NCBI GenBank assembly: GCA_009703125.1
Contig: WLGS01000001.1
Location: 29,860-93,859, forward strand
Direction of reading: 5' to 3'
Length of the DNA: 64,000 nucleotides
DNA from: Actinomycetota bacterium
GTDB lineage: Bacteria; Actinomycetota; Acidimicrobiia; Acidimicrobiales; Ilumatobacteraceae
A model generated the notes under the pieces. That model saw nothing but the letters and a program-made list of their open reading frames with translations. It had not been told where the DNA came from and did no database searches. A program made the position numbers and the translations under genes. Of this stretch, positions 29,927 through 51,812 are shown one piece after another (the first letter of the stretch is position 1; each line of letters starts with the position of its first letter).

Positions 29927-30015
29927 AGGTACACCTATCTTTACATACCGTGAAAACACACACGTAAGTGCAATACCCGTCGAGTCTGAGTATGGCGAAA
30001 CTCACGTCTACAGCA

Positions 30016-36000: not shown

Positions 36001-39000
36001 ATCGATTGCAATTGTGAACCATCCGTCGTTCTTGTTGGTGATGTTGTCGCTAGATGAGATACCTGAATCGCTGCTTGCTTCAAGGTCTGGAGCACCGGGG
36101 GTTCCGGGAATTCGGTTATCAATCACAAGCATCAAATCACTCGTAGAAACAGCACTGTTTCCTTCACCTGACACCTTGGCTCGGTAACCATAAGTTCCGT
36201 CATCGAGAGATGACACGGTGAATTCGTATGCACCTGCAGAAATATCTGCGCTGGTCAACACACGCGATGCCACTACCCCACCGGAAAGATCGACTAATTG
36301 GAGTAACTGTCCTGGCTTATGAACGAGACTTCCACTGTTAGTGAGCGCAGTAGTGATACGCACTGTCCGTTGATTCGTGCGACTATCTCCAGGGGTTCCA
36401 GAGTCATCTGCAAGTAACAATTGCGGAACACCTGGTGCCACAACTGATGACAGGTTCATCGCAACTGACCGCGACCTTTCGGTGACATTGGTTGCCGTAT
36501 CTGTTGCGGTGGCTATAAACACCACAAGTGCTGTAGTCCCAATCTGGGTCCAATCACTGGAAGTGAGGGTGTAGGACCAAGAACCAGACACTGGTGTGAT
36601 CGATTTTGTGAGCCCTGCAAATGTAAGCGTCATGGTGGCATTGTTTTCCACTGTGCCCGAAACTGTGACACCCGCATTCTTCTCTGCAATTGTGACGTCA
36701 TCATTTCCTGCAACTGCCGACATCGTCACAACAGGTGGAACGCTGTCGATTCTCCATGTGACACCTTGAGAAGCTATCGAGGCATTGCCCGCAATATCTG
36801 TCGCCACTGCCGTGATGGAGTGGTCGCCATCAAGCAAAGCCACGTCTGTGAAGGACCAAGTTCCATCAGTTGCAACCAAAGTCTTTAACTCGGTGGCAGG
36901 CGAAGAAGAATTGTCATACACAACCACAGTGGACCCTGCTTCGGCCGTTCCAGAAATTGTGGGCGAGACATCGTTCGTAGTTATTGGAGAAGTCCCCGAA
37001 ATCACGGGGGCATTCGGAGCCAAGGTGTCGATTGCAAATGACAAAGAGGCGCTTGGCGCATTTCCATTTCCTGCAGTATCGGTGAAGACACCAGCCAGTA
37101 CTGCAACCGATCCGGTGACTTGGTTACGCCCAACTGCAGGTGTGAATGTGAACCGGTAGACCGTTGATGACACCGCAACAAAGTTTGAAACAGAGCCCTC
37201 AGTTGTCGCAATGTCCGTGATGACAAAGTTAGAAGAGGGTTCACTGAGCGTTGCCGTAATCACAGCTGTTTGGCCAACTCTAAGAGTTGTAGTGACAGAA
37301 GTCAGTGTGATTGTGGGAACGACGTAATCCACCACCAACATCACAGAGGAACTCAAGGCAGACACGTTTCCTGCAGCATCGATGAGTTGCACAGTGACAG
37401 CGCCACCTGCTGCGATTGCGCTCTGTAACGCTGCCGAACTTGAGAGCCCCAGCGAGAATGCGAGAGTTGTATCCGAGGAGCCAATCGAATTATCTGTGGC
37501 AAGGACTGTCTCGCCAAGCAAAAGGTTGGCAGTTCCATTAGTTGCTTGACCCGCGATGATGTTTGCAGATGCAGTCAAGTTCGTTGTGGAAGCCAGAAGA
37601 GTGTTGGCAACGACAGTCCCACCAACAGGTGCAAGGGCCAAGTTCGTCGGAGACGTTGGAGCCAAAGTATCAATCACGATTGCCTTATTGCCCGCAAGCG
37701 ACGAGGCACCCCCGACTGTGGGCAAACTTACCGATGCATCGTTACCAGACAGGTCACGAATTGTCCCTGCATTAAGCGAAAGTGCATTCACTGTCGCATA
37801 ATCAAGATCGCCGCTGGTGTGACCTGCCAATACTGTGTATCGGAATGTGAGCGTGCTTGTTCCTGAACCTGCAACAAATGTTGCACTTGCTCCAGCGGCT
37901 GCATTTAACGCAAGAACGGGTGTGCCACCGCCAGTTTGAACAATGACGGCGTCTGTGAATACCACCGAGATATCTACAACAGATCCGGCCCGATAGGCGC
38001 CGTTCGCTGTGGTTGAAGACACGGAAGAAACCACTGGAATTGCTGTATCAACTGTTGAAGTAACGGTATTGCTGACTTCGTTTGGATTGCCTGCGGCATC
38101 TGTAAATGCTCCAGTTGTTACCGAGGCAACCATTGCAACTGTGGAATTCGATGTTGGAGTAAGAACAAATGAGTAGCTAGTACCAGAACCGCTGAAGGTT
38201 CCCGCAGATCCACCCACAACTGTGATGTCTCCGAGATTGAAGTTGATAGAAGGTTCACTCAAGGTGGCAGTCACGGTCGCGGTTTGCCCTGCGATTACTG
38301 AAGTTCTATTGCTGCTTAACGTGATCGTTGGCACCACGTAGTCAACTGAAAGTGACACTCCGGAACTTGCGAGCGAGAGGTTTCCTGCAAGGTCGGCAAG
38401 TTTCACAGTGACAACGCCACTTCCTGTGACTAGTGCTTGCAGCTGTGCAGTGGTAGTGGCGCCGAGAGTAAATGTTGCAGTTGAGTCTGTGGATGAAATT
38501 GTGGAATCAGTAGCTATCAGTGCACCATCGAGATACAACGTTGCCGCACCACCTGTTGCTTCCCCAGGAATAATTGTTGCAGTTGCCGTGAGGTTGGTGT
38601 TTGTTGCGGACAATTTATTACTCGTCACTGTGCCACCTACAGGCGTCAACACAAGCCCGGTGGGCGCGGTGGGCGCAACGGTGTCGATAATCAGTGCCGC
38701 GTTCGCAGCCAATGATCCGGCCGATCCAGGGCTCATCAGTGTTCTGTTCGCTATGTTGCCCACAACGTCTCGAATAGCTCCACCATTTAATGCCAGTGCA
38801 TCTACCGATTGAATATCAAGATCTGTCGAGAGATCGCCTACTTGCACTGTGTAGCGGAACGTAGCAACTGCTCCTGATGCACTTACAAAGTTTGCAGAAC
38901 GATCAGTCGCCCCTGTCTCCAAGATCAGCGATGGCACACCACCACCAGTGTTAACCGTGATGGCCTCGTTGAATGTCACCGTCACATCAATGATTGATCC

Positions 39001-42000
39001 AGTTCTGTACATTCCATTACTGGTTGATGACTGAATACTTATCACTCGAGGTGCTGCGGTATCCACAGCAATACTCAATGAACTCGATGTGTTAAACACT
39101 CCACTTGCGTTGCTAAAGGCTCCGGCATCAACGGAGATTTGTGCTGTCCCTGAAAAACCCAAACTTGGAGAGAACGAAGCGGTGTACGACATCCCAGATC
39201 CAGTAAAGCCACTAATTGTTCCTCCGCTAGTAGCCACATCGTCAACGCCGAAGTCTGTACTTGCTTGATCGAGAGTAAAAGTGATCACCGCCGTGCCGGT
39301 GCCGCCTAATGTCGCAGCACTAGATGTGATGGAGACAACAGGGTTGCGGTTGTCAAGTGTGTATGTCTGCGCGACGCCTGTGGGAACAATTCCAGTTAGA
39401 GAGTTTCCTGCAATATCGGTAACAGTGGGATTTGCAACAAAGCCCAATCCCACAACACCGTTAAGTGACGCAAGGTCCCCTCCACTCACCGTCGCGTCAT
39501 ATGAGCCAAGAGTTCCGCTCACCATCGCTATGCGCGACACCGTTGCAGTTGAACCAGTAACTACAAAGTCACTGCTATCTAACCCACTGACGGGTTCTGA
39601 GAATGTCAGGCGGAAGGTAAGTGCATCAAGTCCAGTTGTCTGCGAGGACGGTGCCTGTCGAAGAACGCTGGTAAAGGTTGGCGCTGTTGTATCGATGTTG
39701 ATGGTTAGCTCAGAAGAAACACCTGACGATCCAGTTTTCACTCCAGACACAGTGGCTCGTGCCCTAAAGGTACGAAGACCCGGCGTCAGATTCGATGATG
39801 GCGAAAATGAATACGCACCAAAGCTGTCCGCGACAGTCGATCCAAGTGGAGTGCTGCTGCCATCCATGAAAATGAGAACTGTTGCACCAGCATCTGCAGC
39901 ACCTGTAATCAATGGCGTGAGATCACTCGTAGGGGTGACACCAGTTATCGAAGGTGTCACCACCATGATGGGAATGGGAAGAATCCATGACACCACGTCA
40001 GATGCAGGGCTCTCGTTTCCACGTAGGTCAATAGCAGTGACGTAGTAGTAGTACGTGAGTCCACGACCTACGGCAATGTGTTCAAAAGCGCTCACACTGT
40101 CGTCCACACTGCTCAGAACACTGAAGGACGACTCACTAGCGCAACTTGATGCGACAAGGCCAGAACACGAATAAATCCTGTACTTGAATAAATCTGTTTC
40201 AACATTGTCTGCCCAATCAAGTGCGATGCCATCAATACCTGATGCCGAAAGAACAGTCGGCTTCAAAGGAACAGCGCCGTCAATAGAGAGCAACTTGCTG
40301 CCCGCGAGAGAATCACTACTTCCAGGAACAGGAAGCGTGACATCAGCGTTGTTTCCGACACGGTCTCGGATAGTTCCACCATTAAGTGCAAGCGATGTCG
40401 TGTCTTTCACATCAAGAGCCGAGATGAGATCACCGGTTGCCACCACGTATCTAAATGACAACGTGGATGATCCACTTCCAGATAGGTAATTGACTGCTAC
40501 ATCGCGAGTTCCCGCATTCAATGTGAGAGTTGGTGTACCGGTCACAATGACCGCTTCTGAAAATGCAACGTTGACGATTACTTCTCTTTCCGCAAGATAA
40601 TTACCTGCAGGGTTTGGAGAAGAAATACCCGAGACCACAGGAACGGTGTTATCCACCGAATAGCTAATGGTCAAAGAACCGGCACCGCTTTGATGTCCCC
40701 GAGTATGGACTGGCACCGCAACTTCTGGCGCTGTGTAGCTAGAGCCACCGCCGCCACCGGAGTAGCCGCCTGTTGCAATTCGAGCAAGTTGCGGTGATCG
40801 ACCTGCAGCCCAACCTCCCCAGTAGCCGCCGCCTCCGCCACCAGATGCAGGTGTTGAAGCAACGCCGCCGGTACCAAGAGCATTTCCGTAAGTTTGTGAT
40901 CCTCCGAAACCAGAACAGTTGCCATCAATTCCATTTCCGCAACTGTTGCTGACTCCTTCACCTGCGATGAGTCCACCACCGACTCCGCCAGTTCCAGTGG
41001 AGTGGCCACCGCCGCCACCGCCGCCAGCAACAATTATTCGTGTTGCCAATGACCCAGCCGTGCTCCACAAACTTGGACCGTTCACAGTTCCCGTAGTCGC
41101 TGAACTTGCAAGCGAGGCAACTCCTACCGCATAAGAAAATGTTGTTGTTGTCGGAACTGCAGTGACTGTGAATGTTCCGTCATATGGCGTTCCGACTCCT
41201 GCCACAATGACCGTGTGCCCCACACTGAAACCGTGTGGGCTTGTTGTTGTCAACGTTGCCCTACTTGACTGCACAATTCTGTTCGTCACGTTGAACATGT
41301 TGCGACGGATATCAGTAGCACCGCCGCCGCCGCCACCAGATGTTGCACCGGATCCATTACCGCCACCATTCCAGCCGCCAACGTTGCTATTACCTGCACC
41401 ACCGACGTATCGATACAAGGTTTCGCCGGGTGTCACCGGAATCGCTCCTTGAGTGCGACCGCCCCTACCACCTACGGCGGGATTTCCTGCTCCACCTTGT
41501 CCGCCCATGGCGTCAACTTGAAGCCACGACACTCCCGTAGGTACAACAAAAGGAACCACAGATCCTGAGAAAGAAGTAGTGACCGTAGTTAATGCTGTGG
41601 GAGTAGCTGTGACATCGCCCGATAGTGGCGCCTCACTGGTCACACCGTTAATTGTGACGATGGGCGCGATGCGATAAAAGTACGGTGTCTCATTTGTAAG
41701 GCCGGTGTGTGAATAGCCAAGTGTTCCTGTTGGCACCGTTGCTAACAGTGTGGTGGGGTTCGCGGCAGTTCCCCCGTATACGCGATAGCCCGTTAACGAA
41801 GTGAGGAATGATTCGTTCCAGCTCACGGATACTGCTCTATCCAGAGGAGTTGCTTGCACGCCTGTCACGATGGGTGAAGAAGACCACGCAATCTCCATGA
41901 GTCCATCTCCAGAAATGATTCCTTGCGCATGAAACACAGAAGTCACTTCGGGTGCGGTGTAGCTGGAACCTCCGCCACCACCTGAGTAGCCGCCTGTTGC

Positions 42001-45000
42001 AACTCGATCTAGTTGCGGGGATCGACCTGCTGCCCAACCACCCCAGTATCCACCGCCGCCGCCACCAGATGCCGGTGTTGAGGCAGCGCCTCCGGTACCT
42101 AGAGCATTTCCGTATGTTTGTGATCCGCCATAACCAGAACAGTTGCCGTCAATGCCATTTCCACAACTGTTGCTTACACCTTCACCTGCGATGAGTCCAC
42201 CGCCAACTCCGCCAATTCCAGTGGAGTGGCCACCGCCACCGCCACCACCAGCCACAACCAAACGTGTTGCCAATGATGCAGGTGTGCTCCACAAACTTGG
42301 TCCACTCACAGTGCCCGTCGTCGCTGTTCCAGCAATCGATCCGACGCCGACCGCATAAGAAAAAGTTGACGTTGTGGGAACTGCAGTGACTGTGAATGTT
42401 CCGTCATATGGCGTTCCCACCCCTGTCACAATGACCGTCTGGCCCACACTGAATCCGTGTGGGTTTTGCGTTGTCAATGTTGCTGCGCTTGACTGCACAA
42501 TCTTGTTGGTCACGTTGAATACGTTGCGACGAATATCAGTAGCGCCGCCTCCGCCACCACCTGCTGATGCTCCAGTTCCATTTCCACCACCATTCCAACC
42601 ACCTAAGTGTTTGGAAGATGCCAGCAAGTCGCCGCCTTCACCGCCTACATACACATACAGTTTTTCCCCGGGGGTAACTGAAATTGCACCCTGGGTACGA
42701 CCACCTCGGCCACCGGCGGCGGGGTTGCCAGTACTTCCCATTGCACCATCTGCGGTCACAAAAATTTTGTTGACGTTTGCAGGAACAGTAAATATCTGCA
42801 CGGCATCAATGGCATTGAAAGTTTCACTGCTACTCAGCGACGGTGTGGCTGTCACTTCGGTGGATCTTTGAGATTCGATTGATCCAGAGACAATTGATAC
42901 GCGGTAGAAATACTGCGTTCCCATAGAAAGCCTGTTTTGTAGTTGTACAACACCTGTACTCACAGATCGTGAAGCAATGTTTGCTGATGTCACTGCGAAT
43001 GAAATCGTGGTTGCAGTCACTGCAGTGATAGTGCGAATTCCATTCAGCACCGAATGAACTCCACTAACCACCACGCGATTACCAACGGCCATTCCATGAG
43101 CCGTCGATGTCGTCACAACAGCGACATTGCTCGTCAGGGAGATGTTAGTTGCCACAAAACTTGGCCCGTGATGTTCAAAAGCATTCACCCCGTATGGCAA
43201 AGTCGCCAGCAACGTTGAAGGATTCTGTGTTGTTCCTCCATACACCTTGTACATCGACGCGCCAGAGATGTCCGATTCATCCCAACTGATTGCGTTGTAT
43301 CCACTCCACCCTTGTGCTTCAACGCCAGTTGGATATGCACGCGTGGGAACCGACAAAATCAAAGAACCATTCCCCGTGTTGTATCCACGAGTGTGCATTA
43401 CTCCTGCGATTGTCCGGGTATCTGTATTCGAAAGCGCCGTCGCGGTTGAGAAGCTTGAGCCGCCACCGCCACCTGAGTAACCGCCAGTTCCAACACGAGC
43501 CAACTGTGGAGATCTACCCGCAGGCCAACCACCCCAATAGCCACCACCGCCGCCACCAGATGATGTAGTTGCTGCGTTGCCGCCGGCTCCGAGAGCATTT
43601 CCATACGTCTGTGATCCACCAAGACCCGAACAGTTGCCGTCGATTCCATTTGCACAACTGTTGCTGACGCCTTCACCTGCAACGAGCCCGCCACCGATGC
43701 CACCGATACCAGTGGAGTGGCCACCGCCACCGCCACCGCCCGCTACTACGACACGAGTAGCAAGAGATGCCTCAGTGGCCCAGGCACTTGGACCAGAGAC
43801 GGTTCCTGATGATGCACGTCCAGTAAGCGTTCCGGTGGACACTGGATATGAGATTGTTTTTGACGCGGCATTGATAGCTGTGAGCACAAAAGTTCCGTCA
43901 AATTCACTGCCCACGCCCGCCACGATGACTCTGTTGCCAACACTGAGCCCGTGAGTTTCTGCAGTTGTCAAAGTGGCAATGCTGTTCTGAATGATCTTGT
44001 TCGTGACAACTAATTTGTTACGACGAATATCAGTAGCTCCGCCGCCGCCACCACCCGCGTTCACGCCAGAGCCAGAGCCACCACCATTCCAACCACCCAC
44101 GTGTTGTGTATTGATACGGTCTCCACCACCTCTGCCACCGACATAGATGTACAACTCTTCCCCAGGAGTTACAGGAATGGCTCCTTCAATTCGGCCACCA
44201 TTGCCACCGACGGCTGGTGCACCCGCACCACCTTTTGCACCTTGTGCATCAAATTGCAGCCAAGACACACCAGGAGGAACTGCGTATGTCTGCACCGTGT
44301 CTGTCGCACCAAAGGACACATCTTTAGTGAAAATTGGTGTTGCGTATCTCTGCGTAGATGACGCAGATTCACACGCCGTGTTACATGGACGCGTGGCATC
44401 GGTAAAGATTGCAGAAATCTCGTAGTAATACGTGGTGTTGATGTCGAGGCTCTTGGTGAGCGACACAACACCAGTGGGAGTCACCGCGGCAGAGGCAATG
44501 TTGGCATGCACCACCGAATATCGCAGCGTGGTGCCAGTGGTTCCTGTAGTTGCAATGTAGGTGCCGTCGAAAGGTGCACCCACCCCTTGCACAAGAATTT
44601 CAGATCCCACAGAGATGCCGTGGGCAGTTGCTGTTGTCAACGATGCAACATTCGATGTGATTGCTCTTGCAGTGACTGCAAAGGTATTGCCGTGGTGATT
44701 GAAGCTTTGTGTCAATCGTCCTGGAATATCAATTGTCCGGTTCAACACTCCTTGGGAGGTTCCCCATGAGATTCTGTAGCCGGTTACTGCAGCTTGTGGC
44801 GATGGAGTCCAGTTGAGCATGACTTGAGCCTGAAAACCGTATGCATCAAATTCATTCGGCGCACTGAGCGATCCGCCCTCTGGAGCAAAGATGCTGATCA
44901 AGCCGTTACCTGCGCGTGCACCTTGTGTATGACTGACAAACCCAGCGCCAGGCACCGTCCAACTGGACCCGCCGCCACCGCCGGAATAGCCACCGGTGCC

Positions 45001-48000
45001 CACACGATTTTGTTGCGGCGATTGACCCGATGCATATCCTCCGTAATACCCACCGCCACCGGCACCGCCATTAGTAGATGGCGCCGAAGCGCCCACGCCT
45101 AATGCGTTACCAAAGAATTGCGATGCACCAAGACCAGAGCAGTTCCCGTCAATTCCGTTTGCACAACTATTGCTCACGCCTTGACCAGCTACAAGACCAC
45201 CACCTGCACCACCAGCATGGACTGTATGCCCAACACCACCACCGCCACCGGCGACAATGAGACGAGTAGAAAGATTCGCAGTTGTTAGGTTGCGAATGAC
45301 TGCACCGGTCTTTGCTGCAAAGGCGATATCAAGTTCTGTTTTTGCGTAGGTGAAAGTGGTTGTTGTTGGCACCGCAACAACTGAATATGTGCCGTCATAC
45401 GGAGCACCCACACCTGCAACAACCACAGAGTTGCCCGCAACAAATCCGTGTGGCGAGGCAGTAGTGAGAGTCACCACGCGTGAAAGCAACGAGGCTCCCG
45501 TCACTGTTATTCCTCGTCGAATATCAGAGGCTCCACCGCCACCGCCACCTGCTCCCGTACCAAGGCCAGTTCCGCCGCCATTCCAGCCAGCGACAGTGGA
45601 CACTTGAAAGCGTGCCGGATGATTGTCGCCGCCACCGCCACCAACAAAAACAAACAATGTTTCACCCGGAACTACCGGAACTGTTGCAGAAACATGACCA
45701 CCCAAACCGCCTTGCGCAGTCATGCTTCCGCCTTGTGCACCGAATGCACTGACATTTATCCTTGAGACTCCAGCGGGAACGGTGTAGGACTGAATTGATT
45801 CAGTGAATTCAAAGTTTGTTGTTGCAGTAAAACGCGGGAAGTCTGACACTTCGGATGAAAACTCCGATAAACATTCAGTTCCACAATCCTGGTTCACATC
45901 TGTATAGACAGTTGCAATGGAATAGAAGTACGGCGTACCCATTGTGCGACTTGCATGCGTGTACTCAGATGTATTTGCACCGGAAACATTTATGACCTCT
46001 GTGAGAGCGCCTGATGACGTACCCCATCTAATGCGATAGCCAGTTGCTTCTTTGTTTGTTGACGGTGTCCATGCGACATGAACGCGATAGTTCCAACCAG
46101 TTGCAACAAGGTTTGTGGGCGCCGGGATTGTTGCGTCTTGTGCTGTTGTGATGGTGAGTGCGCCGTTACCCGCATTTTCTCCCCGCGTGTGGGCAACAAA
46201 TTGAATACTGGATGCGGTCCAACTAGATCCGCCGCCGCCACCCGCGTAGCCAACGCTTCCATCGCCACCCCAGTAGCCGCCACCACCGCCGCCGCCACTA
46301 GTGGCACCACTTCCGCCGAGGCCAATGCCTCGAGAGCCTGCTGTTTGTGTGCCGCCGTCACCGCCTAGATGGCTGCTGAAATTGGCTCCTGCCGCACCTT
46401 GCAGACCACCGCCAGCACCACCTTCTGCATGAGATCCGCCGCCACCGCCGCCGCCGGCAACAAGAACGCGACGTGAAAGTCCAAATGCAGGGTTCGAGAA
46501 CAACACCGCACCATCTACTGATGCAGAAGCGATGTTTGCACTGGTTCTTGCATAGGTAAAAGTTGTAGTTGTAGGGGCAGAAGCAACGGCGTACGTCCCG
46601 TTGTAGACATCACCAAGTCCAGTAATCACCACTTGGTTGTTCACAGCAAAACCATGAGGCTCAGAAGTGGTCAGTGTGACGACATTGCCAGTTAGGGCAG
46701 CGTTTGTCACGGTGAAGCCTCGTCGAATATCTGTCGCACCGCCGCCACCACCGCCGGTACCAGTACTTACTCCACCACCGTTGTAACCAGCAACAATGCT
46801 GGATCTAAAGGTGAACGGGTAATTGTTTCCGCCACCACCGCCGACGTAAATGAACAATGTTTCACCAGGCGTCACGGGAACTGTTGCAACTACTCGCCCA
46901 CCTCGACCGCTAGCCATAGTTGCATTATTCGCACCAGCTGCACCTCGCGCATCAACGCGAATTTGGGTGACGCCCATAGGCACTTTGTAGGTCTCTGGTG
47001 CTTCAACGAACTCAAAATTTTGTGATGTCTCAAAGCGACCGTCGACGGTAATCGCAGATGAATAGGCAGATAGACAAAAACTGCCACAAGGTTGTGAGAT
47101 ATCTGTGTAGATCGAGGCAATGCGGTAGTAATACGTTTGTCCAACTGGCAAATGAGAGGTTCGCTGCACGAGGCCAGTGGGCCTCACTACGCTCTCCACA
47201 ACTGAAGTTCCTGCCAACGCATAAGTAAAGGTGCGCGCTGTGGGCACAGTTGCCACACGAACAATCCCATTAAACAGAGAATCAACTCCACTGATTGAAA
47301 TTTCTTGACCCACTACTAGGCGGTGATCAACAGCGGTGGTCAAAGTTGCCACAGTGGCAGTCTTAGCTTTAGACACAATTGAAATGGGTGTGGCTGAGTG
47401 TGTAAAGAAATTTGTGTCTCCTCCACTCACATCAAATTGATTCACGATTTGGGTGGGATCGGTTCCCCATCTGATGCGATACCCCGTTACATCATCGAGT
47501 GGTGGAACAACCCACGTGAGTTCGCTCGAACGTGACCAGCCCTTTCCTGCGAATTGTGTGGGAGGAACCATCGTTGTTGTTTGAGGAATGCGCACGCGTA
47601 TTGAAGCACCACCAGTGGCAACAGCAGGTGTGTGAGTGATCCCATACACACCTGTGCCAGTGAACGATGAACCACCGCCGCCACCTGCGTATGCGGCACC
47701 ACCAGCTCCGCCCCAAAATCCGCCGCCGCCGCCGCCTGCAGCGGTAGTGCCACCACTACCCGCTCCGACGGCACTTCCCGTTGACTGCGTTCCCGCGGCA
47801 CCACCGAGGTTGCCTCCATGTGGTGCACCTGCCGATGCGATGAGTCCGCCACCTGATCCACCACCTGCGTGCGATCCTGCACCGCCGCCACCACCTGCAA
47901 CCAGAACTCGCCGTGACCAGCTCGAAGATGGCACTGCTTGAATGACTGCGCCCGTCACAGTTGCTGATGCAACGTTCGCATGTGTTCGCGAATAGGTAAA

Positions 48001-50808
48001 GGATGTGGTGTTGGGTACTGAAGAAATCGAATAGGTGCCGTCGTAGGCACTACCCAAACCCGCAACAACAATGGAATTTCCTACTGCGAGTCCGTGCGCA
48101 GTGGACGAGGTGATTCTCGCGACATTTGATGTCAGCGACGCTTCAGTGATTGCGATACCGCGACGAACATCGCTCGCACCGCCTCCACCTTGACCAGGCG
48201 CACTTCCTGCACCGCCACCGTTCCAACCGCCAGCGGCCCCATTGTTGGAACCTCCGACGAAAAAGAACAACACTTCACCTGGGGTTACAGGCAAGATGGC
48301 ATCCACCTGGCCGGCACGGCCGGCAGCAAAAGTTGTGGCGCCACCAGAAGCTCCAATTGCGGTGACATTTAAACCTGTGATTCCTTGAGGCACGACATAG
48401 GGCTGCGGCGCACCGGTGTGTACAAACACTGTGCTCCTCGCAAACTGAGTCTGGGCAGAAACAGCTGTCGAATAATCCGTGAGACATGCCGTTGTACACG
48501 CTTGCGTATTGTCGGTGTAAACATACGCAACTTGGTAGTGGTACGTCTGGCCCGTACTCAAAGAGTTTGCACGTTGAGCATTGCCCGCAATTGCAAGTGC
48601 AGTAGAAGTGACATTGGCTGCAGTTCGGTTATAGGTAAAAGTTGTCGATGTCACCGACCTCACTACATGTGTTCCATTGAATGTTGGATCTATTTCGGAC
48701 ACAACAACAGAATCTCCAACACTTAAACCGTGCGGAGTAGCGGTTGTCAAAGTGGCGATGTTTGTTCCCAGCGCAACTCTGATGACACGTGTGGGTGAAC
48801 CCATATGAATGAATGAGTCAGTGAGGCGACCGCCAATTCCAAATTCATTCGTCAGAGCATTCGGGTCTGTCCCCCATTTAATTCGAACGCCTGTCACTGC
48901 TGTGTTTAACGATGTTGGCCATTTCAATGCAACTGAATTCACTCCCGCAGTTGCAGTTAATTGACCAGGAGTCAATGGATTGGAGGCGATCTGCACAATG
49001 TCGACATCACACGTTTCTTGCTCTTCAACATCACATGCGTTCTCCACGGGCGGCTGCGACGATGACGTATTTGTCAGCAACGCTTGCAACTCCGCCGGGC
49101 TTGCCGATGGATTGTGAGCAGCGAGTCGGGCAAGAGCAGCGGACACATGAGCCGCCGCCATTGAAGTGCCTTGTCGATATGCATAACTATCGGCGCCTGG
49201 ACCTTGCTCTCCTGCATTAGAAAGCGAATAAATCCCCAGGTCGCCACTTGCATTGAGATCTCCGCCAGGAGCTGCGATATGAATTCCGCTACCAAAGTTT
49301 GAATAATGCGCACGCTGGCCTGAAGCATCAGTTGCGCCGACAGCAATAACTCCATCACAGTTCGCAGGTGAATACTCGCTGACATTGCTGTTTGCATTAC
49401 CTGCCGCTACTGCAACAACACTTCCATTTGCGATTGCGATATCAATTGCAGTTTGGAAAGTTGAACTACATGCGCCCCTTGTGGCAAAAGACAAATTGAT
49501 GACATCGGCTGGATTCTCGTTGTCCGCTACTCCTTCGACGCGACCACCTGAGGCCCAAATGATCGATGCTGCGATATCGGAAGACAAACCTCCTCGCCAA
49601 CTAATCGCACGAATAGGCAAGATGTTTGCCAGTGGTACAAGCCCAGCAATGCCGAGAGAGTTATTGATCTGCGCACCGATAATTCCGGCCACGTGGGTTC
49701 CATGCCATGAACTGTTGCGAACTGGGTCAAGTCCGCGCCAGTCACCTGGGTCATTTGGATTGCTGTCCCATCCAAGTTGGCCATAGGTCTCGGTGTCTAC
49801 ATAGTCACCATCGAATCCCACTTCATATTCCCCAGGTGTGCGAACAGCCGATAACTCAGGATGATTGGAGACAAAGTCGAATCCACTCAAGATTCGATCT
49901 CCAAAGTCGCCATGGCGAGTGATTCCGGTATCAATCACTGCAACAGTGGATCCCTCGCCTAGGTCTTGAGGTGTGCGCCCAAACGCAGGTGGGAAAAGGT
50001 GCTGTCCTGCCACTCCAGATGAGGACCAAAGATTCCATTGCTTCGATGAATATTCCGGGTCTGCGGTGTCGTTTTGGGTAGTCGTCACGACTTCTTCGGC
50101 CTCTACCCACTTCACTCGTGGGTCGGCCTCTAAAGACTCGATAATGAGTTGAGATGTTTCTTGCGTGACCGGCGCGGCCAAACGAACAGTGTGTAGTCCA
50201 TCGCCAAGGTCTGACTCGGGGACCAGCTCGACGCCTTCAACAACACCAGACCCGGTGGCAACCCCAGGCGATTGATCCGCCTCGACACCAGCTTCATACT
50301 GCACAATCAAACGGCTTACGACGCCATCAAAACCATTTGTCGGAATCACAGTGAGTGGACCAGCCAGCTCGCTCACGCCTACTTCGTTTCGAGCAGCCAC
50401 ATGAATTGTGTACGACGCACCGTTGACGAGTCCGTTGATCTGTGAAGTTGTCTGTGTCGGATCTATAACAACTTCGATGCCTCCAGGCTCAACTGCAACG
50501 ACATACGAAAGTGGTGGTGTGGAGTTCTCAGTGAGTGCATCCCACGACACAACAACTCCGTTATCGATGGCACGTGCCACAACATTTTGTGGAGCTTGTG
50601 CACATTGCGCAGGCATCACCACATCAACCTCAGTGAGCACCGCAAAGGTTTCAGAACATGGGAAAGTGTGGCCGACAATAACCTCGGCGCTTGCTGCAGT
50701 GGTAGGGACAAATGCGACTACAAGACATGCCACAAGCGAGACCGGCAGGGCGTTCGTGACAAAGCGGAGCCGTCCTCTCTTTTTAGAAAATAGACTCCAC
50801 TTAAGCAC
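30016..50808 (-). CDS. giant (6,930 aa) modular cell-surface protein: signal peptide, FN3, S8 subtilase, 6 x (FN3 + glycine-rich domain), Ig-like stalk, helical repeats, C-terminal polytopic membrane domain
   Basis: One frame is open for 20,793 nt from GTG 50808 to TAG 30016. Recognisable domain motifs occur along the whole length. All opposite-strand ORFs are short and low-complexity. Confidence 0.9.
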   Translation of the reverse strand: MLKWSLFSKKRGRLRFVTNALPVSLVACLVVAFVPTTAASAEVIVGHTFPCSETFAVLTEVDVVMPAQCAQAPQNVVARAIDNGVVVSWDALTENSTPPLSYVVAVEPGGIEVVIDPTQTTSQINGLVNGASYTIHVAARNEVGVSELAGPLTVIPTNGFDGVVSRLIVQYEAGVEADQSPGVATGSGVVEGVELVPESDLGDGLHTVRLAAPVTQETSQLIIESLEADPRVKWVEAEEVVTTTQNDTADPEYSSKQWNLWSSSGVAGQHLFPPAFGRTPQDLGEGSTVAVIDTGITRHGDFGDRILSGFDFVSNHPELSAVRTPGEYEVGFDGDYVDTETYGQLGWDSNPNDPGDWRGLDPVRNSSWHGTHVAGIIGAQINNSLGIAGLVPLANILPIRAISWRGGLSSDIAASIIWASGGRVEGVADNENPADVINLSFATRGACSSTFQTAIDIAIANGSVVAVAAGNANSNVSEYSPANCDGVIAVGATDASGQRAHYSNFGSGIHIAAPGGDLNASGDLGIYSLSNAGEQGPGADSYAYRQGTSMAAAHVSAALARLAAHNPSASPAELQALLTNTSSSQPPVENACDVEEQETCDVDIVQIASNPLTPGQLTATAGVNSVALKWPTSLNTAVTGVRIKWGTDPNALTNEFGIGGRLTDSFIHMGSPTRVIRVALGTNIATLTTATPHGLSVGDSVVVSEIDPTFNGTHVVRSVTSTTFTYNRTAANVTSTALAIAGNAQRANSLSTGQTYHYQVAYVYTDNTQACTTACLTDYSTAVSAQTQFARSTVFVHTGAPQPYVVPQGITGLNVTAIGASGGATTFAAGRAGQVDAILPVTPGEVLFFFVGGSNNGAAGGWNGGGAGSAPGQGGGGASDVRRGIAITEASLTSNVARITSSTAHGLAVGNSIVVAGLGSAYDGTYSISSVPNTTSFTYSRTHANVASATVTGAVIQAVPSSSWSRRVLVAGGGGGAGSHAGGGSGGGLIASAGAPHGGNLGGAAGTQSTGSAVGAGSGGTTAAGGGGGGFWGGAGGAAYAGGGGGSSFTGTGVYGITHTPAVATGGASIRVRIPQTTTMVPPTQFAGKGWSRSSELTWVVPPLDDVTGYRIRWGTDPTQIVNQFDVSGGDTNFFTHSATPISIVSKAKTATVATLTTAVDHRLVVGQEISISGVDSLFNGIVRVATVPTARTFTYALAGTSVVESVVRPTGLVQRTSHLPVGQTYYYRIASIYTDISQPCGSFCLSAYSSAITVDGRFETSQNFEFVEAPETYKVPMGVTQIRVDARGAAGANNATMASGRGGRVVATVPVTPGETLFIYVGGGGGNNYPFTFRSSIVAGYNGGGVSTGTGGGGGGATDIRRGFTVTNAALTGNVVTLTTSEPHGFAVNNQVVITGLGDVYNGTYAVASAPTTTTFTYARTSANIASASVDGAVLFSNPAFGLSRRVLVAGGGGGGGSHAEGGAGGGLQGAAGANFSSHLGGDGGTQTAGSRGIGLGGSGATSGGGGGGGYWGGDGSVGYAGGGGGSSWTASSIQFVAHTRGENAGNGALTITTAQDATIPAPTNLVATGWNYRVHVAWTPSTNKEATGYRIRWGTSSGALTEVINVSGANTSEYTHASRTMGTPYFYSIATVYTDVNQDCGTECLSEFSSEVSDFPRFTATTNFEFTESIQSYTVPAGVSRINVSAFGAQGGSMTAQGGLGGHVSATVPVVPGETLFVFVGGGGGDNHPARFQVSTVAGWNGGGTGLGTGAGGGGGGASDIRRGITVTGASLLSRVVTLTTASPHGFVAGNSVVVAGVGAPYDGTYSVVAVPTTTTFTYAKTELDIAFAAKTGAVIRNLTTANLSTRLIVAGGGGGVGHTVHAGGAGGGLVAGQGVSNSCANGIDGNCSGLGASQFFGNALGVGASAPSTNGGAGGGGYYGGYASGQSPQQNRVGTGGYSGGGGGSSWTVPGAGFVSHTQGARAGNGLISIFAPEGGSLSAPNEFDAYGFQAQVMLNWTPSPQAAVTGYRISWGTSQGVLNRTIDIPGRLTQSFNHHGNTFAVTARAITSNVASLTTATAHGISVGSEILVQGVGAPFDGTYIATTGTTGTTLRYSVVHANIASAAVTPTGVVSLTKSLDINTTYYYEISAIFTDATRPCNTACESASSTQRYATPIFTKDVSFGATDTVQTYAVPPGVSWLQFDAQGAKGGAGAPAVGGNGGRIEGAIPVTPGEELYIYVGGRGGGDRINTQHVGGWNGGGSGSGVNAGGGGGGATDIRRNKLVVTNKIIQNSIATLTTAETHGLSVGNRVIVAGVGSEFDGTFVLTAINAASKTISYPVSTGTLTGRASSGTVSGPSAWATEASLATRVVVAGGGGGGGHSTGIGGIGGGLVAGEGVSNSCANGIDGNCSGLGGSQTYGNALGAGGNAATTSSGGGGGGYWGGWPAGRSPQLARVGTGGYSGGGGGSSFSTATALSNTDTRTIAGVMHTRGYNTGNGSLILSVPTRAYPTGVEAQGWSGYNAISWDESDISGASMYKVYGGTTQNPSTLLATLPYGVNAFEHHGPSFVATNISLTSNVAVVTTSTAHGMAVGNRVVVSGVHSVLNGIRTITAVTATTISFAVTSANIASRSVSTGVVQLQNRLSMGTQYFYRVSIVSGSIESQRSTEVTATPSLSSSETFNAIDAVQIFTVPANVNKIFVTADGAMGSTGNPAAGGRGGRTQGAISVTPGEKLYVYVGGEGGDLLASSKHLGGWNGGGNGTGASAGGGGGGATDIRRNVFNVTNKIVQSSAATLTTQNPHGFSVGQTVIVTGVGTPYDGTFTVTAVPTTSTFSYAVGVGSIAGTATTGTVSGPSLWSTPASLATRLVVAGGGGGGGHSTGIGGVGGGLIAGEGVSNSCGNGIDGNCSGYGGSQTYGNALGTGGAASTPASGGGGGGYWGGWAAGRSPQLDRVATGGYSGGGGGSSYTAPEVTSVFHAQGIISGDGLMEIAWSSSPIVTGVQATPLDRAVSVSWNESFLTSLTGYRVYGGTAANPTTLLATVPTGTLGYSHTGLTNETPYFYRIAPIVTINGVTSEAPLSGDVTATPTALTTVTTSFSGSVVPFVVPTGVSWLQVDAMGGQGGAGNPAVGGRGGRTQGAIPVTPGETLYRYVGGAGNSNVGGWNGGGNGSGATSGGGGGGATDIRRNMFNVTNRIVQSSRATLTTTSPHGFSVGHTVIVAGVGTPYDGTFTVTAVPTTTTFSYAVGVASLASSATTGTVNGPSLWSTAGSLATRIIVAGGGGGGGHSTGTGGVGGGLIAGEGVSNSCGNGIDGNCSGFGGSQTYGNALGTGGVASTPASGGGGGGYWGGWAAGRSPQLARIATGGYSGGGGGSSYTAPEVAVPVHTRGHQSGAGSLTISYSVDNTVPVVSGISSPNPAGNYLAEREVIVNVAFSEAVIVTGTPTLTLNAGTRDVAVNYLSGSGSSTLSFRYVVATGDLISALDVKDTTSLALNGGTIRDRVGNNADVTLPVPGSSDSLAGSKLLSIDGAVPLKPTVLSASGIDGIALDWADNVETDLFKYRIYSCSGLVASSCASESSFSVLSSVDDSVSAFEHIAVGRGLTYYYYVTAIDLRGNESPASDVVSWILPIPIMVVTPSITGVTPTSDLTPLITGAADAGATVLIFMDGSSTPLGSTVADSFGAYSFSPSSNLTPGLRTFRARATVSGVKTGSSGVSSELTINIDTTAPTFTSVLRQAPSSQTTGLDALTFRLTFSEPVSGLDSSDFVVTGSTATVSRIAMVSGTLGSYDATVSGGDLASLNGVVGLGFVANPTVTDIAGNSLTGIVPTGVAQTYTLDNRNPVVSITSSAATLGGTGTAVITFTLDQASTDFGVDDVATSGGTISGFTGSGMSYTASFSPSLGFSGTAQISVDAGAFSNASGVFNTSSSLSIAVDTAAPRVISIQSSTSNGMYRTGSIIDVTVTFNEAITVNTGGGVPSLILETGATDRSANFVSASGAVATFRYTVQVGDLSTDLDIQSVDALALNGGAIRDVVGNIANRTLMSPGSAGSLAANAALIIDTVAPTAPTGLVLTPVGGTVTSNKLSATNTNLTATATIIPGEATGGAATLYLDGALIATDSTISSTDSTATFTLGATTTAQLQALVTGSGVVTVKLADLAGNLSLASSGVSLSVDYVVPTITLSSNRTSVIAGQTATVTATLSEPSINFNLGDITVVGGSAGTFSGSGTSYSFVLTPTSNSTVAMVASVTTGAFTDAAGNPNEVSNTVTSTVDTAIPVVSSVSSTTANGAYRAGSVVDISVVFTDAVIVQTGGGTPVLALNAAAGASATFVAGSGTSTLTFRYTVLAGHTSGDLDYATVNALSLNAGTIRDLSGNDASVSLPTVGGASSLAGNKAIVIDTLAPTSPTNLALAPVGGTVVANTLLASTTNLTASANIIAGQATNGTANLLLGETVLATDNSIGSSDTTLAFSLGLSSSAALQSAIAAGGAVTVQLIDAAGNVSALSSSVMLVVDYVVPTITLTSVTTTLRVGQTAVITATLSEPSSNFVITDIATTEGSVSNFVAVSSTVYRFTFTPAVGRNQVTGSVAVLAGVFTDTAGNGNAPSASLSFAIDTLAPNAPVISGTSPITTNDVSPTISGTAEAGSTVVVYDNSSSPATELKTLVATDGTWSFTDVALLDGDHSITAVATDIAGNASIASQGVTWRIDSVPPVVTMSAVAGNDDVTIAEKNAGVTVSGTVENNATMTLTFAGLTKSITPVSGSWSYTLTSSDWTQIGTTALVVFIATATDTATNVTERSRSVAMNLSSVVAPGVPQLLLADDSGTPGDSRTNQRTVRITTALTNSGSLVHKPGQLLQLVDLSGGVVASRVLTSADISAGAYEFTVSSLDDGTYGYRAKVSGEGNSAVSTSDLMLVIDNRIPGTPGAPDLEASSDSGISSSDNITNKNDGWFTIAIDGVQISGNALIAGDKIKLLSGSNVVHTSTLTSSEISAQSIRVQADSIFSQGSHVISAQAESASGTRGTPSQSITVVVDRTSYGAPSTPNLSDASDTGLSNSDNVTNIVQPTFVFSLASFGAVANDSLSLLDGSNTVIGEVVITQQDVLAGFVEVPISGTFADGTHAVSARITDRAGNIGQISAGLTVMIDTAAPSASTPVLTASSDTGFSSTDRVTSLLRPTFSGVGVNDQRIDIYNGSNFQGSATVASGVWNFTVLADFANGSHQIRSKTVDVAGNESSLSSSVVVVIDSVQPSNPVFTNSNMIKNSATPVLTGVAEADAFVTVRSGALSLATTRTAVSGAWTAEIASPLAQSVFALDAVATDVAGNVSSGMSNASLTIDTTAPAAPTITAFNVVSSPITLNGTGEVGATVSIFDGTTVIGTAVVGAGGTWTFTTAALTQGAHSFTAVQTDAAMNGSSASSPARIITATQTAAILGADSNNNNNVALTASQYVADGVTAINTPAKAGLMNDVLDELSSNAVDTQSELVSVAEVVNSIFATASGTAVSPPLTAASLALLGITGVTSENLAAVLAAIAATPDDGSGVDSFSELRQLIDDAVTDATAALNVISGFTGSNVAPTLSTYADAAISGVSVANIGAVNSLIAELSSSATDTSTEVQDAVNAYVALLNTADGVANGVEAITLAQFQTLGLGVINTASERQLFNSVVDVSLVSAIDTWAELDYLATIVNRISVLAAGGTPSPALTADDLARLGITGVTSNNLAEVLNAIAATADNGSGVSSLMLLQNVVNTGIANAVADSRAVIASYEGSTGVPTLGDFANVGVTGVTNANLAGVNSFLAVIAASESDSQSEVQTTVDALSKVAAAANGFADGGASLNATDYAALGLTYINLSSEIGLLNDVLDNKVTQAVDTYTEVAALASIVARIIGETSGTVASPELTPQDFLALEISGVTSHNIEAILSAIRSSNSNNTPITDLSSLRTLVASAVEQARDAAILVISQFDGSSNSVAPSLADFANAEVSGVTISNIVAVRTAFAVIGSLASDSTSEISAVVNGFVAVLAGADGTANSNVSLTVAEYQGFGIRAIDTTDKAALLNSVLDRKIRTSVDEYLEIVVLSEIVSDLFLLATGNEPLSEISIERLSLLGLTGVTPENISLILAAIGNLNGNTGGLNSLTKLQNIVDTVRTNQANALVVIKSYDGTNTIPSLSTFEALGITGVDYRNIGLVNQYLATMTMAQTDSQIEVQALVDAVLKILVCADGIANQNCALTGAEYRAMGYVDIDTDAEIEAMNAEMDVLDLSPADLHNVTAQLAVDITQRFAPVAPSPAPVNPPTVDVPNSVPAVRPVDTPNTGVSVTPTTVATSTSTPPTTTTIPPMEILDMSGGVRVAPNRGVVLINGALQEMQITIAQGNIATAQIPGLFTVRLTPQKLESDPAITGRESQIIAFKGRTIQISAEGFAAQSGVEVWVNSTPVLLGTVTTDTQGTFSQAFELPAGIEVGDHVLTLSGTAQSGSAAIVSIGLVVVDISSITESENPSDNSTDAVNTDQEPFDARSEPKSTVALLGEMVALLALAGLAGSSSGGGRRNDDDEDNDGSGDRGSGDVAEVSAGETGENSEKNRDIFRIPRLRFMDHLMANFPRTISRQSPLLGSIFADAAYLRAWLGSLWALVPLLGVVTGVVAAVNTQFEVVMPALFLLTLIVVVSVFDALFGFVAVVTFGLAVLLGGGVHSADSIRGLLGMFVFSFAVPLIATASRPFRRLATQGFTGVWDRAADFVLITLFGAWAGGSMFSALPGLIGFRPDYADQISHIQIAAALALAARFVLENGATVFVPSQLRAMTVTDLCEPTVRQVVFSSFVRTAIFVFVAEVFIGNNWALWVGAILYLVPKLVPLMQDSLPNVPSLHIFMPRGLLKIVVLLLIAKWWGGLLTSNISNADQMVRIGFVFMGVPSLIATICGWFGRSSTHQWKQTWLTRIAGLVLLIVLFLMVQDII
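30019..31311 (-). other. C-terminal polytopic membrane domain (~430 aa, about 11-12 hydrophobic helices) of the giant protein
   Basis: First helix ALLGEMVALLALAGLAG, then a charged loop (GGGRRNDDDEDNDGSGDRGSGD...). This is followed by helices such as LGSLWALVPLLGVVTGVVAAV, ALFLLTLIVVVSVFDALFGFVAVVTFGLAVLL, LLGMFVFSFAVPLIA, FVLITLFGAWAGGSMFSALPGLI and IAGLVLLIVLFLMV. Confidence 0.7.
32040..34580 (-). repeat. about 13 predicted alpha-helical ~65-70-aa repeats organised as four ~200-aa super-repeats plus a partial fifth
   Basis: Recurring triplet of sub-repeats: L(T)xxxYxxxG(V/L)xxI(N/D)Txxxxxx(L)N(D/S)V(L)D ; LTxxxLxxLGITGVTSxNLxxVLxAIAAT ; (T/S)LxxFAxxG(V)(T/S)GVxxxN(I/L)xxVN. Confidence 0.7.
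34580..40660 (-). other. Ig-like / FN3 stalk region of the giant protein
   Basis: Many ~100-aa beta-rich units with ID(T)xAP boundaries. One FN3 is present (LDWADN...YYYYVTAIDLRGNES), along with DxGxSxxDxxTN-type Ig repeats (SDSGISSSDNITN, SDTGLSNSDNVTN, SDTGFSSTDRVTS). Confidence 0.6.
37045..39067 (-). repeat. two diverged 1,011-bp (337-aa) super-repeats, each of three Ig-like domains
   Basis: VDTAAPRVISIQSS... (from ~39067) and VDTAIPVVSSVSS... (from ~38056) align along their whole length, ending at AIDTLAPNAP (~37045). Confidence 0.75.
40663..48990 (-). repeat. six tandem 400-500-aa modules, each FN3 + glycine-rich (ALK/LTK-like) domain
   Basis: The GGGGG(A/S)(T/S)D(I/V)RR motif recurs near 48168, 46728, 45522, 44030, 42535 and 41310. 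Module starts lie near 48990, 47575, 46135, 44870, 43350 and 41880. Confidence 0.85.
49068..49971 (-). other. subtilisin-like peptidase S8 catalytic domain inside the giant ORF
   Basis: Triad motifs in canonical order: VAVIDTGI (Asp codon 49930-49932), HGTHVAGIIGA (His codon 49702-49704), GTSMAAAHVSA (Ser codon 49162-49164). It is preceded by an I9-propeptide-like segment. Confidence 0.85.
50344..50595 (-). other. N-terminal fibronectin type III-like domain of the giant protein
   Basis: aa ~72-155: APQNVVARAIDNGVVVSWDAL...GASYTIHVAARNEVGVSE. Confidence 0.6.
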
Positions 50809-51109: not shown

Positions 51110-51724
51110 TTACTCAAAGAGAACCGCAAAAAGCATTTCTTGAAACGTCGTGACAAGCTCCTGTCGAGACAAGAATTCTGGACCCAGTTCCCACAACGAA
51201 ATTCCGTGAGCAAATGACAAATACAGTCCTGCTATGTGTAAGCAGTTAACGGATTCCTTTATCAGGCCTCGTTGCTGCACCGACTCAAAGACTTCAGCCA
51301 AGTTGCGACACAATGCATTTCTTTCATCTGCGATTTGTTCCGCAAATTCGGAATGATCTTTCGCATTGCCAATGTCGCTATTTCTTTCCAGTCGCACTCG
51401 ACTTCGTTCTGGCACAAACACCACAGACAGCGTTTGTTCTATTGCTAAACGAAATTCCATTGAGGAATTACAACGTGATGCCAAGTGAGCAAACTCATCA
51501 AGCTTGAACCCATACCGTTGACCAAAGCGAGCAGCCATGGCAGAGGCGACAAGCGTGTCTCGATCGCCAAAGTAATAACGAATCATTCCCTGAGACACTC
51601 CCGCATTGCGAGCAACATCAACTATCCGAAGTGCACCCTCGCCGTGGCTATCAATTGCATCAATTGCTGATTGAAGGATTTTCTCGCGTGTCAATCCATC
51701 GTCTTTAGATACAGCCACAGTCAC
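51110..51724 (-). CDS. TetR/AcrR family transcriptional regulator
   Basis: HTH region (LRIVDVARNAGVSQGMIRYYFGDRDTL). GTG start at 51724. Confidence 0.8.
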   Translation of the reverse strand: MTVAVSKDDGLTREKILQSAIDAIDSHGEGALRIVDVARNAGVSQGMIRYYFGDRDTLVASAMAARFGQRYGFKLDEFAHLASRCNSSMEFRLAIEQTLSVVFVPERSRVRLERNSDIGNAKDHSEFAEQIADERNALCRNLAEVFESVQQRGLIKESVNCLHIAGLYLSFAHGISLWELGPEFLSRQELVTTFQEMLFAVLFE

Positions 51725-51784
51725 CAGTTTTCACCTTTCTTCACGCCAGTTGTTGCTCTTGTGCACCTACAAGTCATGGATAAA

Positions 51785-51799
51785 TCATAAAATTTATGA
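51785..51799. promoter_or_regulatory. 15-bp palindrome TCATAAA-A-TTTATGA (candidate TetR operator)
   Basis: Perfect 7-bp inverted arms around one central base. It lies in the 88-bp divergent region between the TetR gene (51724) and the propeller-OmpA gene (51813). Confidence 0.35.
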
Positions 51800-51812
51800 A
51801 TATACTTTCGGT

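Follow-up and report, generated by a model that had tools for sequence, protein, structure and literature searches.

The ligand-binding fold of ALK and LTK, the TNF-like/glycine-rich (TG) supradomain, is usually treated as a feature of animal receptors that has a few look-alikes in phages. For human ALK, 14 polyglycine-II segments have been listed (PMC13243192). Here we describe bacterial domains of this type in a 64,000-nucleotide stretch of DNA (the window) from an Actinomycetota bacterium of the Ilumatobacteraceae (assembly GCA_009703125.1, contig WLGS01000001.1, positions 29,860 to 93,859 of the forward strand). A single open reading frame (ORF) in the window encodes a giant protein of 6,930 amino acids (aa), within which lie six tandem modules (M1 to M6), each made of an FN3 domain followed by a glycine-rich domain. 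By profile, motif order, and fold, the glycine-rich domains belong to the Pfam family PF12810 (ALK_LTK_GRD), and we are highly confident of the structural identity of the modules as TG-type domains. The locus is a well-supported bacterial case of the fold and an unusual one, with six copies per chain and a second domain nested in each.

Six modules of the ALK/LTK type

The modules occupy aa 610-3386 of the giant protein (nt 40651-48981 of the window, minus strand). An earlier reading of this DNA, made from the letters alone (the sequence-only reading), had placed six tandem FN3 and glycine-rich modules at 40663-48990; the limits delimited here differ by no more than 12 nt, and the motif strings it had quoted from M5 were all found, in the order quoted. 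Aligned end to end, the modules are 37-45% identical to M1 and share 89 invariant columns. When run on the whole 6,930-aa protein, a local hidden Markov model (HMM) returned exactly six glycine-rich domains and none outside the modules; glycine accounts for about 25% of each domain. The most alike pair is M5 and M6. Because the DNA of these two is only 81% identical and the same protein is also recorded on other contigs, an assembly artefact is an unlikely source of the repeats and was rejected. In public collections the identical protein is CAB4640828.1 (UniProt A0A6J6JWK4).

The sequence-only reading had also proposed, from strings of the human ALK ectodomain, that the modules match the ALK/LTK PF12810 supradomain, and had suggested single-module profile scans and a structural comparison as checks. 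These strings agree with the ALK sequence in the PDB, and the homology is borne out by profile scores, a profile search of the PDB, structural models, Foldseek, and segment order. The PF12810 model matches the whole protein with 274.6 bits (E 1.3e-81) and the single modules with 31.8-70.4 bits, all six of them above the gathering score of 24.5. Each module’s match consists of two stretches because of an insert nested in the glycine-rich domain. We then compared a profile of 81 bacterial homologues (M1-M6 and 75 database homologues) with all PDB chain sequences. Below an E of 1e-4, the search found ALK/LTK ectodomains only, with E values from 1.8e-9 to 1.9e-8; nearly the full domain is spanned, profile positions 56-293 pairing with ALK chain residues 50-311.

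The structural models lead to the same relatives. For the glycine-rich domain of M6, AlphaFold2 gave a mean predicted local distance difference test score (pLDDT) of 92.5 and a predicted template modelling (TM) score of 0.89, with no segment below 50 and an average of at least 77 in each 10-residue block; the whole M5 module was modelled with a pLDDT of 90.8, again with no stretch below 50. In a Foldseek comparison of the M6 model with the PDB, the 21 best matches were without exception ALK or LTK, with E from 2.2e-6 to 6.7e-4, probabilities of 0.99-1.00, and TM-scores of 0.25-0.45. The full M5 module repeated this result and added matches to FN3 arrays. As judged from these models, the fold similarity to ALK/LTK is clear, not close. 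The glycine segments of the M6 model have high pLDDT and are neither helix nor strand by DSSP; in the modelled TG lattice, the glycine-rich helices are probably polyglycine-II. Similarity to ALK/LTK was thus found, the segments are not modelled as disordered linkers, and the homology claim is therefore supported.

The correspondence extends to the order of individual segments. In an alignment of ALK 722-983 with M1-M6 made with the family HMM (hmmalign), about 12-13 of the 14 polyglycine-II segments of ALK have glycine-rich counterparts in the modules, with their order kept. Segment 899-906 is deleted in the modules, which also lack the long helical insertion of ALK (~783-811). The sequence-only reading had further stated that the glycine runs of ALK/LTK form a ligand-binding surface, and this is too strong. 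In Li et al. 2021, the ALK glycine helices reportedly act as a rigid scaffold or as separators, and the main ligand site is reported to lie on the TNF-like part.

The FN3 half of the modules is documented less evenly. With the Pfam fn3 model (PF00041, cut-off 25 bits), M3 scores 25.1, M4 gives a partial match of 15.2, and the others give none. The N-terminal halves of all six modules align with M3, however, and the M5 model has the strand order expected of FN3, with an insert between strands E and F; with this model Foldseek returns the FN3 arrays of fibronectin and contactin. The FN3 label given by the sequence-only reading therefore stands by Pfam for M3, is weak for M4, and for M1, M2, M5, and M6 rests on the module alignment and the M5 model. 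In the make-up of the modules, it overlooked a domain of about 75 aa that is inserted in every module.

Cysteine pairs distinguish some modules from others. A pair noted by the sequence-only reading in M3-M6 is indeed there, since the motif NG(I)DGNCSG occurs only in these four (aa 1884, 2387, 2884, and 3292). By direct inspection, it is kept as SNSCDAGGTGNCSG in a relative from an Ilumatobacteraceae genome and is absent from a relative from the Nanopelagicales. A second pair, (Q/R)xCxxxC, lies near the end of the FN3 domain in M1-M4 (QACTTAC, QPCGSFC, QDCGTEC, and RPCNTAC, at aa ~765-775, 1235-1245, 1640-1650, and 2130-2140, for example) and not in M5-M6; it is also present in two modules of the Nanopelagicales relative (locus L002).

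A small barrel nested within the modules

Within every module's glycine-rich domain, the insert of about 75 aa sits between ‘ATDIRR’ and ‘R(L/V)VVAGGGG’, with a consensus of roughly ..TLTT..PHG..VG..V.V.GV...YDGT..V..V.TTTFTY. The insert occupies the TNF-like hairpin that corresponds to residues 825-840 of ALK, with polyglycine-II segments 4 and 5 on either side. The same domain also lies within the FN3 of M1, M2, M4, and M5, where the M5 model places it in the E-F loop. This makes ten copies in total, with mutual identities of 26-84% and none elsewhere in the protein. With such a domain set into one defined hairpin in every copy, the glycine-lattice scaffold can evidently accommodate a large insert, a property of use when proteins are designed on polyglycine-II scaffolds.

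The model shows the insert as a small β-barrel. By Foldseek, its fold is like that of the barrel insertion domain of phage endosialidases (K1F/NF and phi92; probability 0.99-1.00) and like that of the FCCH domain of ubiquitin E1 (Pfam PF16190; probability 0.75-0.99). Both of these domains are likewise insertions into a host domain, and the endosialidase barrel binds carbohydrate (sialic acid). At the sequence level, the best insert copy of the giant protein scores 13.4 bits against E1_FCCH (E 0.085), compared with a cut-off of 29.5, and some relatives of the insert attain the PF16190 score for the whole protein (P0193, 50.2 bits). Among PDB sequences, a profile built on the ten copies found nothing, even at E 10, and in a word-indexed protein search it found only short fragments; NCBIfam has no match for either the glycine-rich domain or the insert.

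Other collections place the insert in a large family. In a representative library of 1.84 billion proteins, the ten-copy profile found 6,213 clusters, defined at 50% identity, and as many as 23 copies in one protein. Sampled members pair the insert with SPP1_Dit, Mtd_N, or collagen repeats, and partly match Pfam E1_FCCH. Compared alone with predicted viral structures (BFVD), the insert finds matches in baseplate J-like and wedge proteins from uncultured freshwater Caudovirales, at ~1 Å root-mean-square deviation (RMSD) and 38-42% identity. Pfam covers the family only marginally, through E1_FCCH. The family is common in the Dit, baseplate, and fibre proteins of phages and in other giant proteins of 4,000-7,600 aa. 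Of the insert family's 150 best representatives, only four have the nested layout, and each of these looks like a fragment from the family of giant proteins described here.

The giant protein, its relatives, and its neighbours

The features of the giant protein and of the adjacent genes are collected in the table. The protein begins with a Sec-type N-terminal signal and ends in a polytopic C-terminal anchor; the ~6,400 aa between them consist of extracellular-type domains, with the protease and the modules at the end far from the anchor. The subtilisin-type (Peptidase_S8) domain keeps all three triad motifs: DTG (aa 293), HGTH (aa 369), and GTSMA (aa 547). Every NCBIfam match to it falls under its cut-off; the closest, a mycosin model of the type VII secretion system (T7SS), does so by far. 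A propeptide-like stretch lies ahead of the S8 domain, which sits at the membrane-distal end of the protein, N-terminal to the six modules. Beyond the modules comes an immunoglobulin (Ig)-like stretch of Big_12, Big_13, and Big_6 domains that is ~2,000 aa long, followed by at least four copies of a repeat of ~196 aa whose marker motif, L(G/E)(I/L)(T/S)GVT, occurs at aa 5494, 5689, 5885, and 6083. To the eye the repeat region looks helical from its sequence; no Pfam or NCBIfam model covers the stretch (aa ~5421-6300). Likewise, the C-terminal anchor (aa 6498-6930) has no family match in Pfam or NCBIfam. An acidic linker precedes the anchor, and a polytopic anchor is unusual for a giant surface protein, in which it would replace a sortase signal or a single helix.

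Features of the giant gene and of its neighbourhood (positions in the window)
Feature	Position (nt)	Strand	Remarks
Giant coding sequence	30016..50808	-	6,930 aa, GTG start; contains all six modules
Signal peptide / hydrophobic segment, aa 1-42	50683..50808	-	hydrophobic core aa 16-34; hydropathy scan and sequence
N-terminal FN3, aa 72-153	50350..50595	-	best stretch of Pfam fn3; whole-protein E 8.1e-19
Subtilisin-type protease (Peptidase_S8), aa 284-583	49060..49959	-	Pfam E 1.6e-49
M1, aa 610-1079	47572..48981	-	FN3 with nested barrel and glycine-rich domain (47572-48441) with nested barrel; PF12810 31.8 bits
Nested barrel, FN3 of M1	48559..48795	-	
Nested barrel, glycine-rich domain of M1	47923..48159	-	
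M2, aa 1080-1559	46132..47571	-	FN3 with nested barrel and glycine-rich domain (46132-47031) with nested barrel; PF12810 64.6 bits
Nested barrel, FN3 of M2	47152..47388	-	
Nested barrel, glycine-rich domain of M2	46483..46719	-	
M3, aa 1560-1979	44872..46131	-	plain FN3 and glycine-rich domain (44872-45828) with nested barrel, Cys-pair loop; PF12810 69.2 bits, fn3 25.1 bits
Nested barrel, glycine-rich domain of M3	45277..45513	-	
M4, aa 1980-2491	43336..44871	-	FN3 with nested barrel and glycine-rich domain (43336-44328) with nested barrel, Cys-pair loop; PF12810 70.4 bits
Nested barrel, FN3 of M4	44449..44685	-	
Nested barrel, glycine-rich domain of M4	43780..44016	-	
M5, aa 2492-2978	41875..43335	-	FN3 with nested barrel and glycine-rich domain (41875-42834) with nested barrel, Cys-pair loop; PF12810 50.7 bits
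Nested barrel, FN3 of M5	42925..43161	-	E-F loop in model
Nested barrel, glycine-rich domain of M5	42286..42522	-	
M6, aa 2979-3386	40651..41874	-	plain FN3 and glycine-rich domain (40651-41592) with nested barrel, Cys-pair loop; PF12810 48.9 bits
Nested barrel, glycine-rich domain of M6	41062..41298	-	in hairpin matching ALK 825-840
Ig-like stalk (Big_12, Big_13, Big_6), ~aa 3387-5420	34549..40650	-	Pfam E 6.7e-68, 1.1e-43, 1.7e-14
Alpha-helix-type repeats, ~aa 5421-6300	31909..34548	-	period ~196 aa; boundaries approximate
C-terminal polytopic membrane anchor, aa 6498-6930	30019..31317	-	hydropathy scan, ~nine hydrophobic helices
ABC-2 transporter pair	27474-29236		adjacent to giant gene
TetR-family regulator	29282-29959	-	flanks giant gene
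TetR-family regulator	51110-51724	-	flanks giant gene, other side
OmpA-family protein with EPTP-like repeats	51750-53447		adjacent to giant gene

Matches of identical sequence assign the window to an Actinomycetota genome recovered from a freshwater metagenome. Relatives of the giant protein are found in several metagenome-assembled genomes (MAGs). An Acidimicrobiales MAG holds a collinear S8 domain and M1 orthologue (54-58% identity), an Ilumatobacteraceae MAG holds positional orthologues of M5 and M6 (68-69% identity), and a Candidatus Nanopelagicales MAG encodes six glycine-rich domains with nine inserts, together with S8 and Big domains. In an Actinomycetota MAG from Lac Pavin (locus L027, 2357-21373, plus strand), a frame that stays open for at least 6,339 aa has five PF12810-type domains and no nested barrel; because of this layout, the tandem array appears to predate the insertion or to exist independently of it.

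Homologues of the PF12810 type are more widespread. At E<=1e-5, 295 matches were found in Bacteroidota, Eremiobacterota, Actinomycetota, and others; most of those listed carry PF12810, and several are named ‘glycine rich domain-containing protein’ by NCBI. At the level of genomes, 76 loci with PF12810-type domains were found. In BFVD the TG fold is abundant in structural and fibre proteins of phages and giant viruses, with E down to 1.7e-11 and query-normalised TM-scores of 0.51-0.57 for most of the best matches.

The genes around the giant gene include, in addition to those in the table, an acyl-CoA dehydrogenase, a major facilitator superfamily transporter, and the tRNA ligases for Cys and Val; none of its neighbours is a phage gene. 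Elsewhere in the window, an ORF at 19562-22636 (minus strand, 1,024 aa) is called an ‘unannotated protein’ at its source, and the only sequences in which it was seen form a small cluster from freshwater Actinomycetota.

The automatic annotation of the giant protein is misleading. UniProt A0A6J6JWK4 is named ‘receptor protein-tyrosine kinase’, and Pfam scans over all 6,930 aa detect neither a kinase nor an EGF domain. Because these domains are lacking and the C-terminus is a polytopic anchor, the name, judged from the sequence, is an automatic misnomer. With no kinase, EGF-like domain, or single-pass helix, the protein is not an ALK-family receptor. Many phage glycine-rich-domain proteins in BFVD bear the same name, apparently through a systematic mis-annotation in which an automatic rule responds to PF12810.

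The same records show that ALK/LTK-type homology in bacteria is not new, because PF12810 is already catalogued in bacteria and phages and the automatic name is attached to this exact protein; with the basic homology in Pfam, it will not surprise a domain specialist. In the literature, we found no description of a sixfold tandem TG arrangement, of a barrel systematically nested in TG and FN3 domains, or of a protease-tipped, membrane-anchored giant-protein family in freshwater Actinomycetota. The ALK reviews consulted and a paper on ALK evolution do not mention bacterial homologues, the reviews of polyproline-II bundles consulted list no cellular bacterial example, and a genomics paper on the Nanopelagicales does not mention such giant proteins. 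A full-text search for ‘PF12810’ returned one unrelated paper, and a preprint on oral Actinobacteria was set aside as unrelated, having matched only through ‘alkylation’ and a glycine-rich disordered region of a different kind.

A putative binding array and its alternatives

What might such a protein do? By analogy, we lean, at slightly better than even, towards a giant membrane-anchored adhesin that carries a multivalent binding array behind its tip protease. The region described here would lie distally in a giant surface protein that is anchored in the membrane, a location suggested by the N-terminal signal, the ~nine C-terminal transmembrane helices, and the Ig-like arrays between them. Each module consists of an FN3 spacer and then a TG supradomain, in which a TNF-like β-sandwich is interwoven with a lattice of glycine-rich helices, and the six TG domains and ten barrels together would form a multivalent binding device. 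Within it, the glycine lattice would be the rigid scaffold, and the variable TNF-like surfaces, loops, and barrels would touch a ligand in the form of a polymer or a particle, with a glycan or the surface of a foreign cell or particle as the most plausible candidates. The Ig-like and helical stalk would keep the array away from the cell, and the array would place the tip protease on the bound material, which, as the tip subtilisin suggests, might then be proteolysed.

The analogy that supports a binding array has three parts. Every characterised use of the TG fold is in recognition (of cytokines by ALK/LTK and, as proposed, of the host by the cyanophage Pam3); the fold is abundant in structural proteins of phages and giant viruses; and the barrel family decorates phage Dit, baseplate, and fibre proteins. 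The division into a rigid scaffold and variable contact surfaces fits the pattern of conservation, in which the glycine lattice and central strands have the highest mean pairwise identity (0.55-0.82) and the FN3, the barrels, and the outer TNF-like strands have lower values (0.34-0.45).

Several points weigh against this proposal. The binding role rests wholly on analogy, and the contrast in variability between scaffold and putative binding surface is modest. TM-scores to ALK/LTK are just 0.25-0.46, with RMSD values of 8-18 Å across the whole alignment, partly because the insert makes up a quarter of the query. Membrane orientation was read from a crude hydropathy scan only, and the flanking genes (TetR regulators, ABC-2 transporter, OmpA-family protein, and tRNA ligases) yield no functional clue.

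The main alternative is that the modules are purely architectural, with the glycine-lattice and TNF-like blocks, together with the FN3 domains, serving to lengthen and stiffen a protease-bearing stalk and binding nothing. The glycine lattice is the most conserved part of the module, as a scaffold might be, the rest of the protein is a long Ig-like array of the spacer type, and the glycine helices of ALK reportedly act as rigid separators. We nevertheless consider this unlikely, as the fold serves recognition in every characterised context, each module has a lectin-like barrel of the family that decorates phage host-recognition proteins, and cheaper Ig and FN3 spacers are already present elsewhere in the protein. 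Clearly less probable again is a protective coat or decoy, in which densely packed modules of the phage receptor-binding type would hinder phage adsorption or grazing by protists instead of capturing a substrate. Both module types are typical of phage host-recognition proteins; among the matches found, the family is confined to abundant planktonic freshwater Actinomycetota that are under strong pressure from phages and grazers; and one paper's reference list cites surface structures for the grazing resistance of freshwater actinobacteria. Such a role is possible but unsupported: it leaves an N-terminal subtilisin with all three triad motifs unexplained, and there are no defence-system genes adjacent.

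Two further explanations hardly survive the evidence already given. Since glycine makes up about a quarter of each domain, the segments could be disordered low-complexity linkers, or their flat polyglycine-II faces could bind ice in the manner of the snow-flea antifreeze protein, as polyglycine-II bundles of arthropod antifreeze proteins do. We regard this pair of ideas as very improbable. Disordered linkers are rejected on the confident models throughout, the position-specific conservation of the motifs, and the match to a curated profile. Ice, which the sequence-only reading had named as one speculative ligand, is not supported, and an antifreeze function is rejected because it has only the shared helix type in its favour; the match of the fold is to the multilayer lattice of ALK type, set in a TNF-like sandwich, rather than to the two-layer bundle of antifreeze proteins, and none of these is among the Foldseek matches listed. 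It is scarcely credible, finally, that a phage tail-fibre or prophage gene has here been misassigned to the cell, even though the TG fold and the insert are both common in phage proteins. The signal peptide and polytopic C-terminal anchor, the chromosomal setting among housekeeping genes (Val- and Cys-tRNA ligases, acyl-CoA dehydrogenase, and ABC transporter), and the collinear orthologues in several actinobacterial MAGs led us to reject it, and the nearest glycine-rich domains of viruses share only 32-52% identity, over ~100 aa.

A bolder version of the binding array can be imagined, in which these proteins are cellular counterparts of phage receptor-binding proteins. By analogy, the array of TG domains and FCCH-like barrels may seize specific cells, particles, or polymers, which the tip protease digests. 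The six TNF-like units could perhaps fold back as two intramolecular pseudo-trimers, and metazoan ALK/LTK may, in evolution, have drawn their cytokine-binding region from the bacterial and phage lineage of the modules. That all of this should hold together is doubtful, and we give the joint reading little credence. Short of it, the locus supplies small soluble modules for biophysical work, and it defines a conserved family of giant surface proteins, tipped by a protease, in bacteria that rank among the most abundant of fresh waters; the ligand of these proteins could bear on particle attachment, nutrient capture, or interactions with phages and grazers.

Comparison with described systems sets the limits of these analogies. 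The phage S16 gp38 adhesin and the snow-flea antifreeze protein also use glycine-rich bundles of the polyproline-II type as a stable recognition platform, but their topology differs from that of the modules, they are not homologous by any test run, and neither is among the listed Foldseek or PDB profile matches. Closer are the mycobacteriophage Bxb1 tail tip (9D93) and the fibre of the cyanophage Pam3 (gp24; 7YFW/7YPX), in which a TNF-like sandwich extends into a glycine-rich lattice, as in the modules. These follow ALK/LTK in the Foldseek results as much weaker matches (E 1e-3 to 2e-2, TM 0.21-0.31). The Pam3 fibre's TNF-like and glycine-rich end has been proposed to recognise the host, and its similarity to C. 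elegans ALK has been noted (PMC9608196). As homotrimeric fibres, the Pam3 and Bxb1 proteins have a single C-terminal domain and a chaperone of their own, whereas neither a trimerisation helix nor a chaperone is evident for the giant protein.

ALK and LTK (PDB 7N00, 7LRZ, 7MZY, 7NX1, and 7NWZ) remain the sole significant PDB sequence relatives of the modules and their best structural matches, and they have the order of glycine runs and β-strand motifs in common with them, at a sequence identity of 11-20% in structural alignments. Despite this common core, the receptors carry a single copy and the giant protein six in series, and it has none of their EGF-like, MAM, and LDLa domains, single-pass transmembrane helix, or kinase; in addition, where ALK has the hairpin 825-840, the modules carry the nested barrel. 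The bacterial and viral PF12810 proteins, including those of cyanophages, Caulobacter phages, and giant viruses, belong to the same domain family as the modules. Typical bacterial members are proteins of 270-550 aa with one uninterrupted domain and no insert; in contrast, the giant protein described here sets six such domains in series, each split by a barrel, within a membrane-anchored chain of 6,930 aa.

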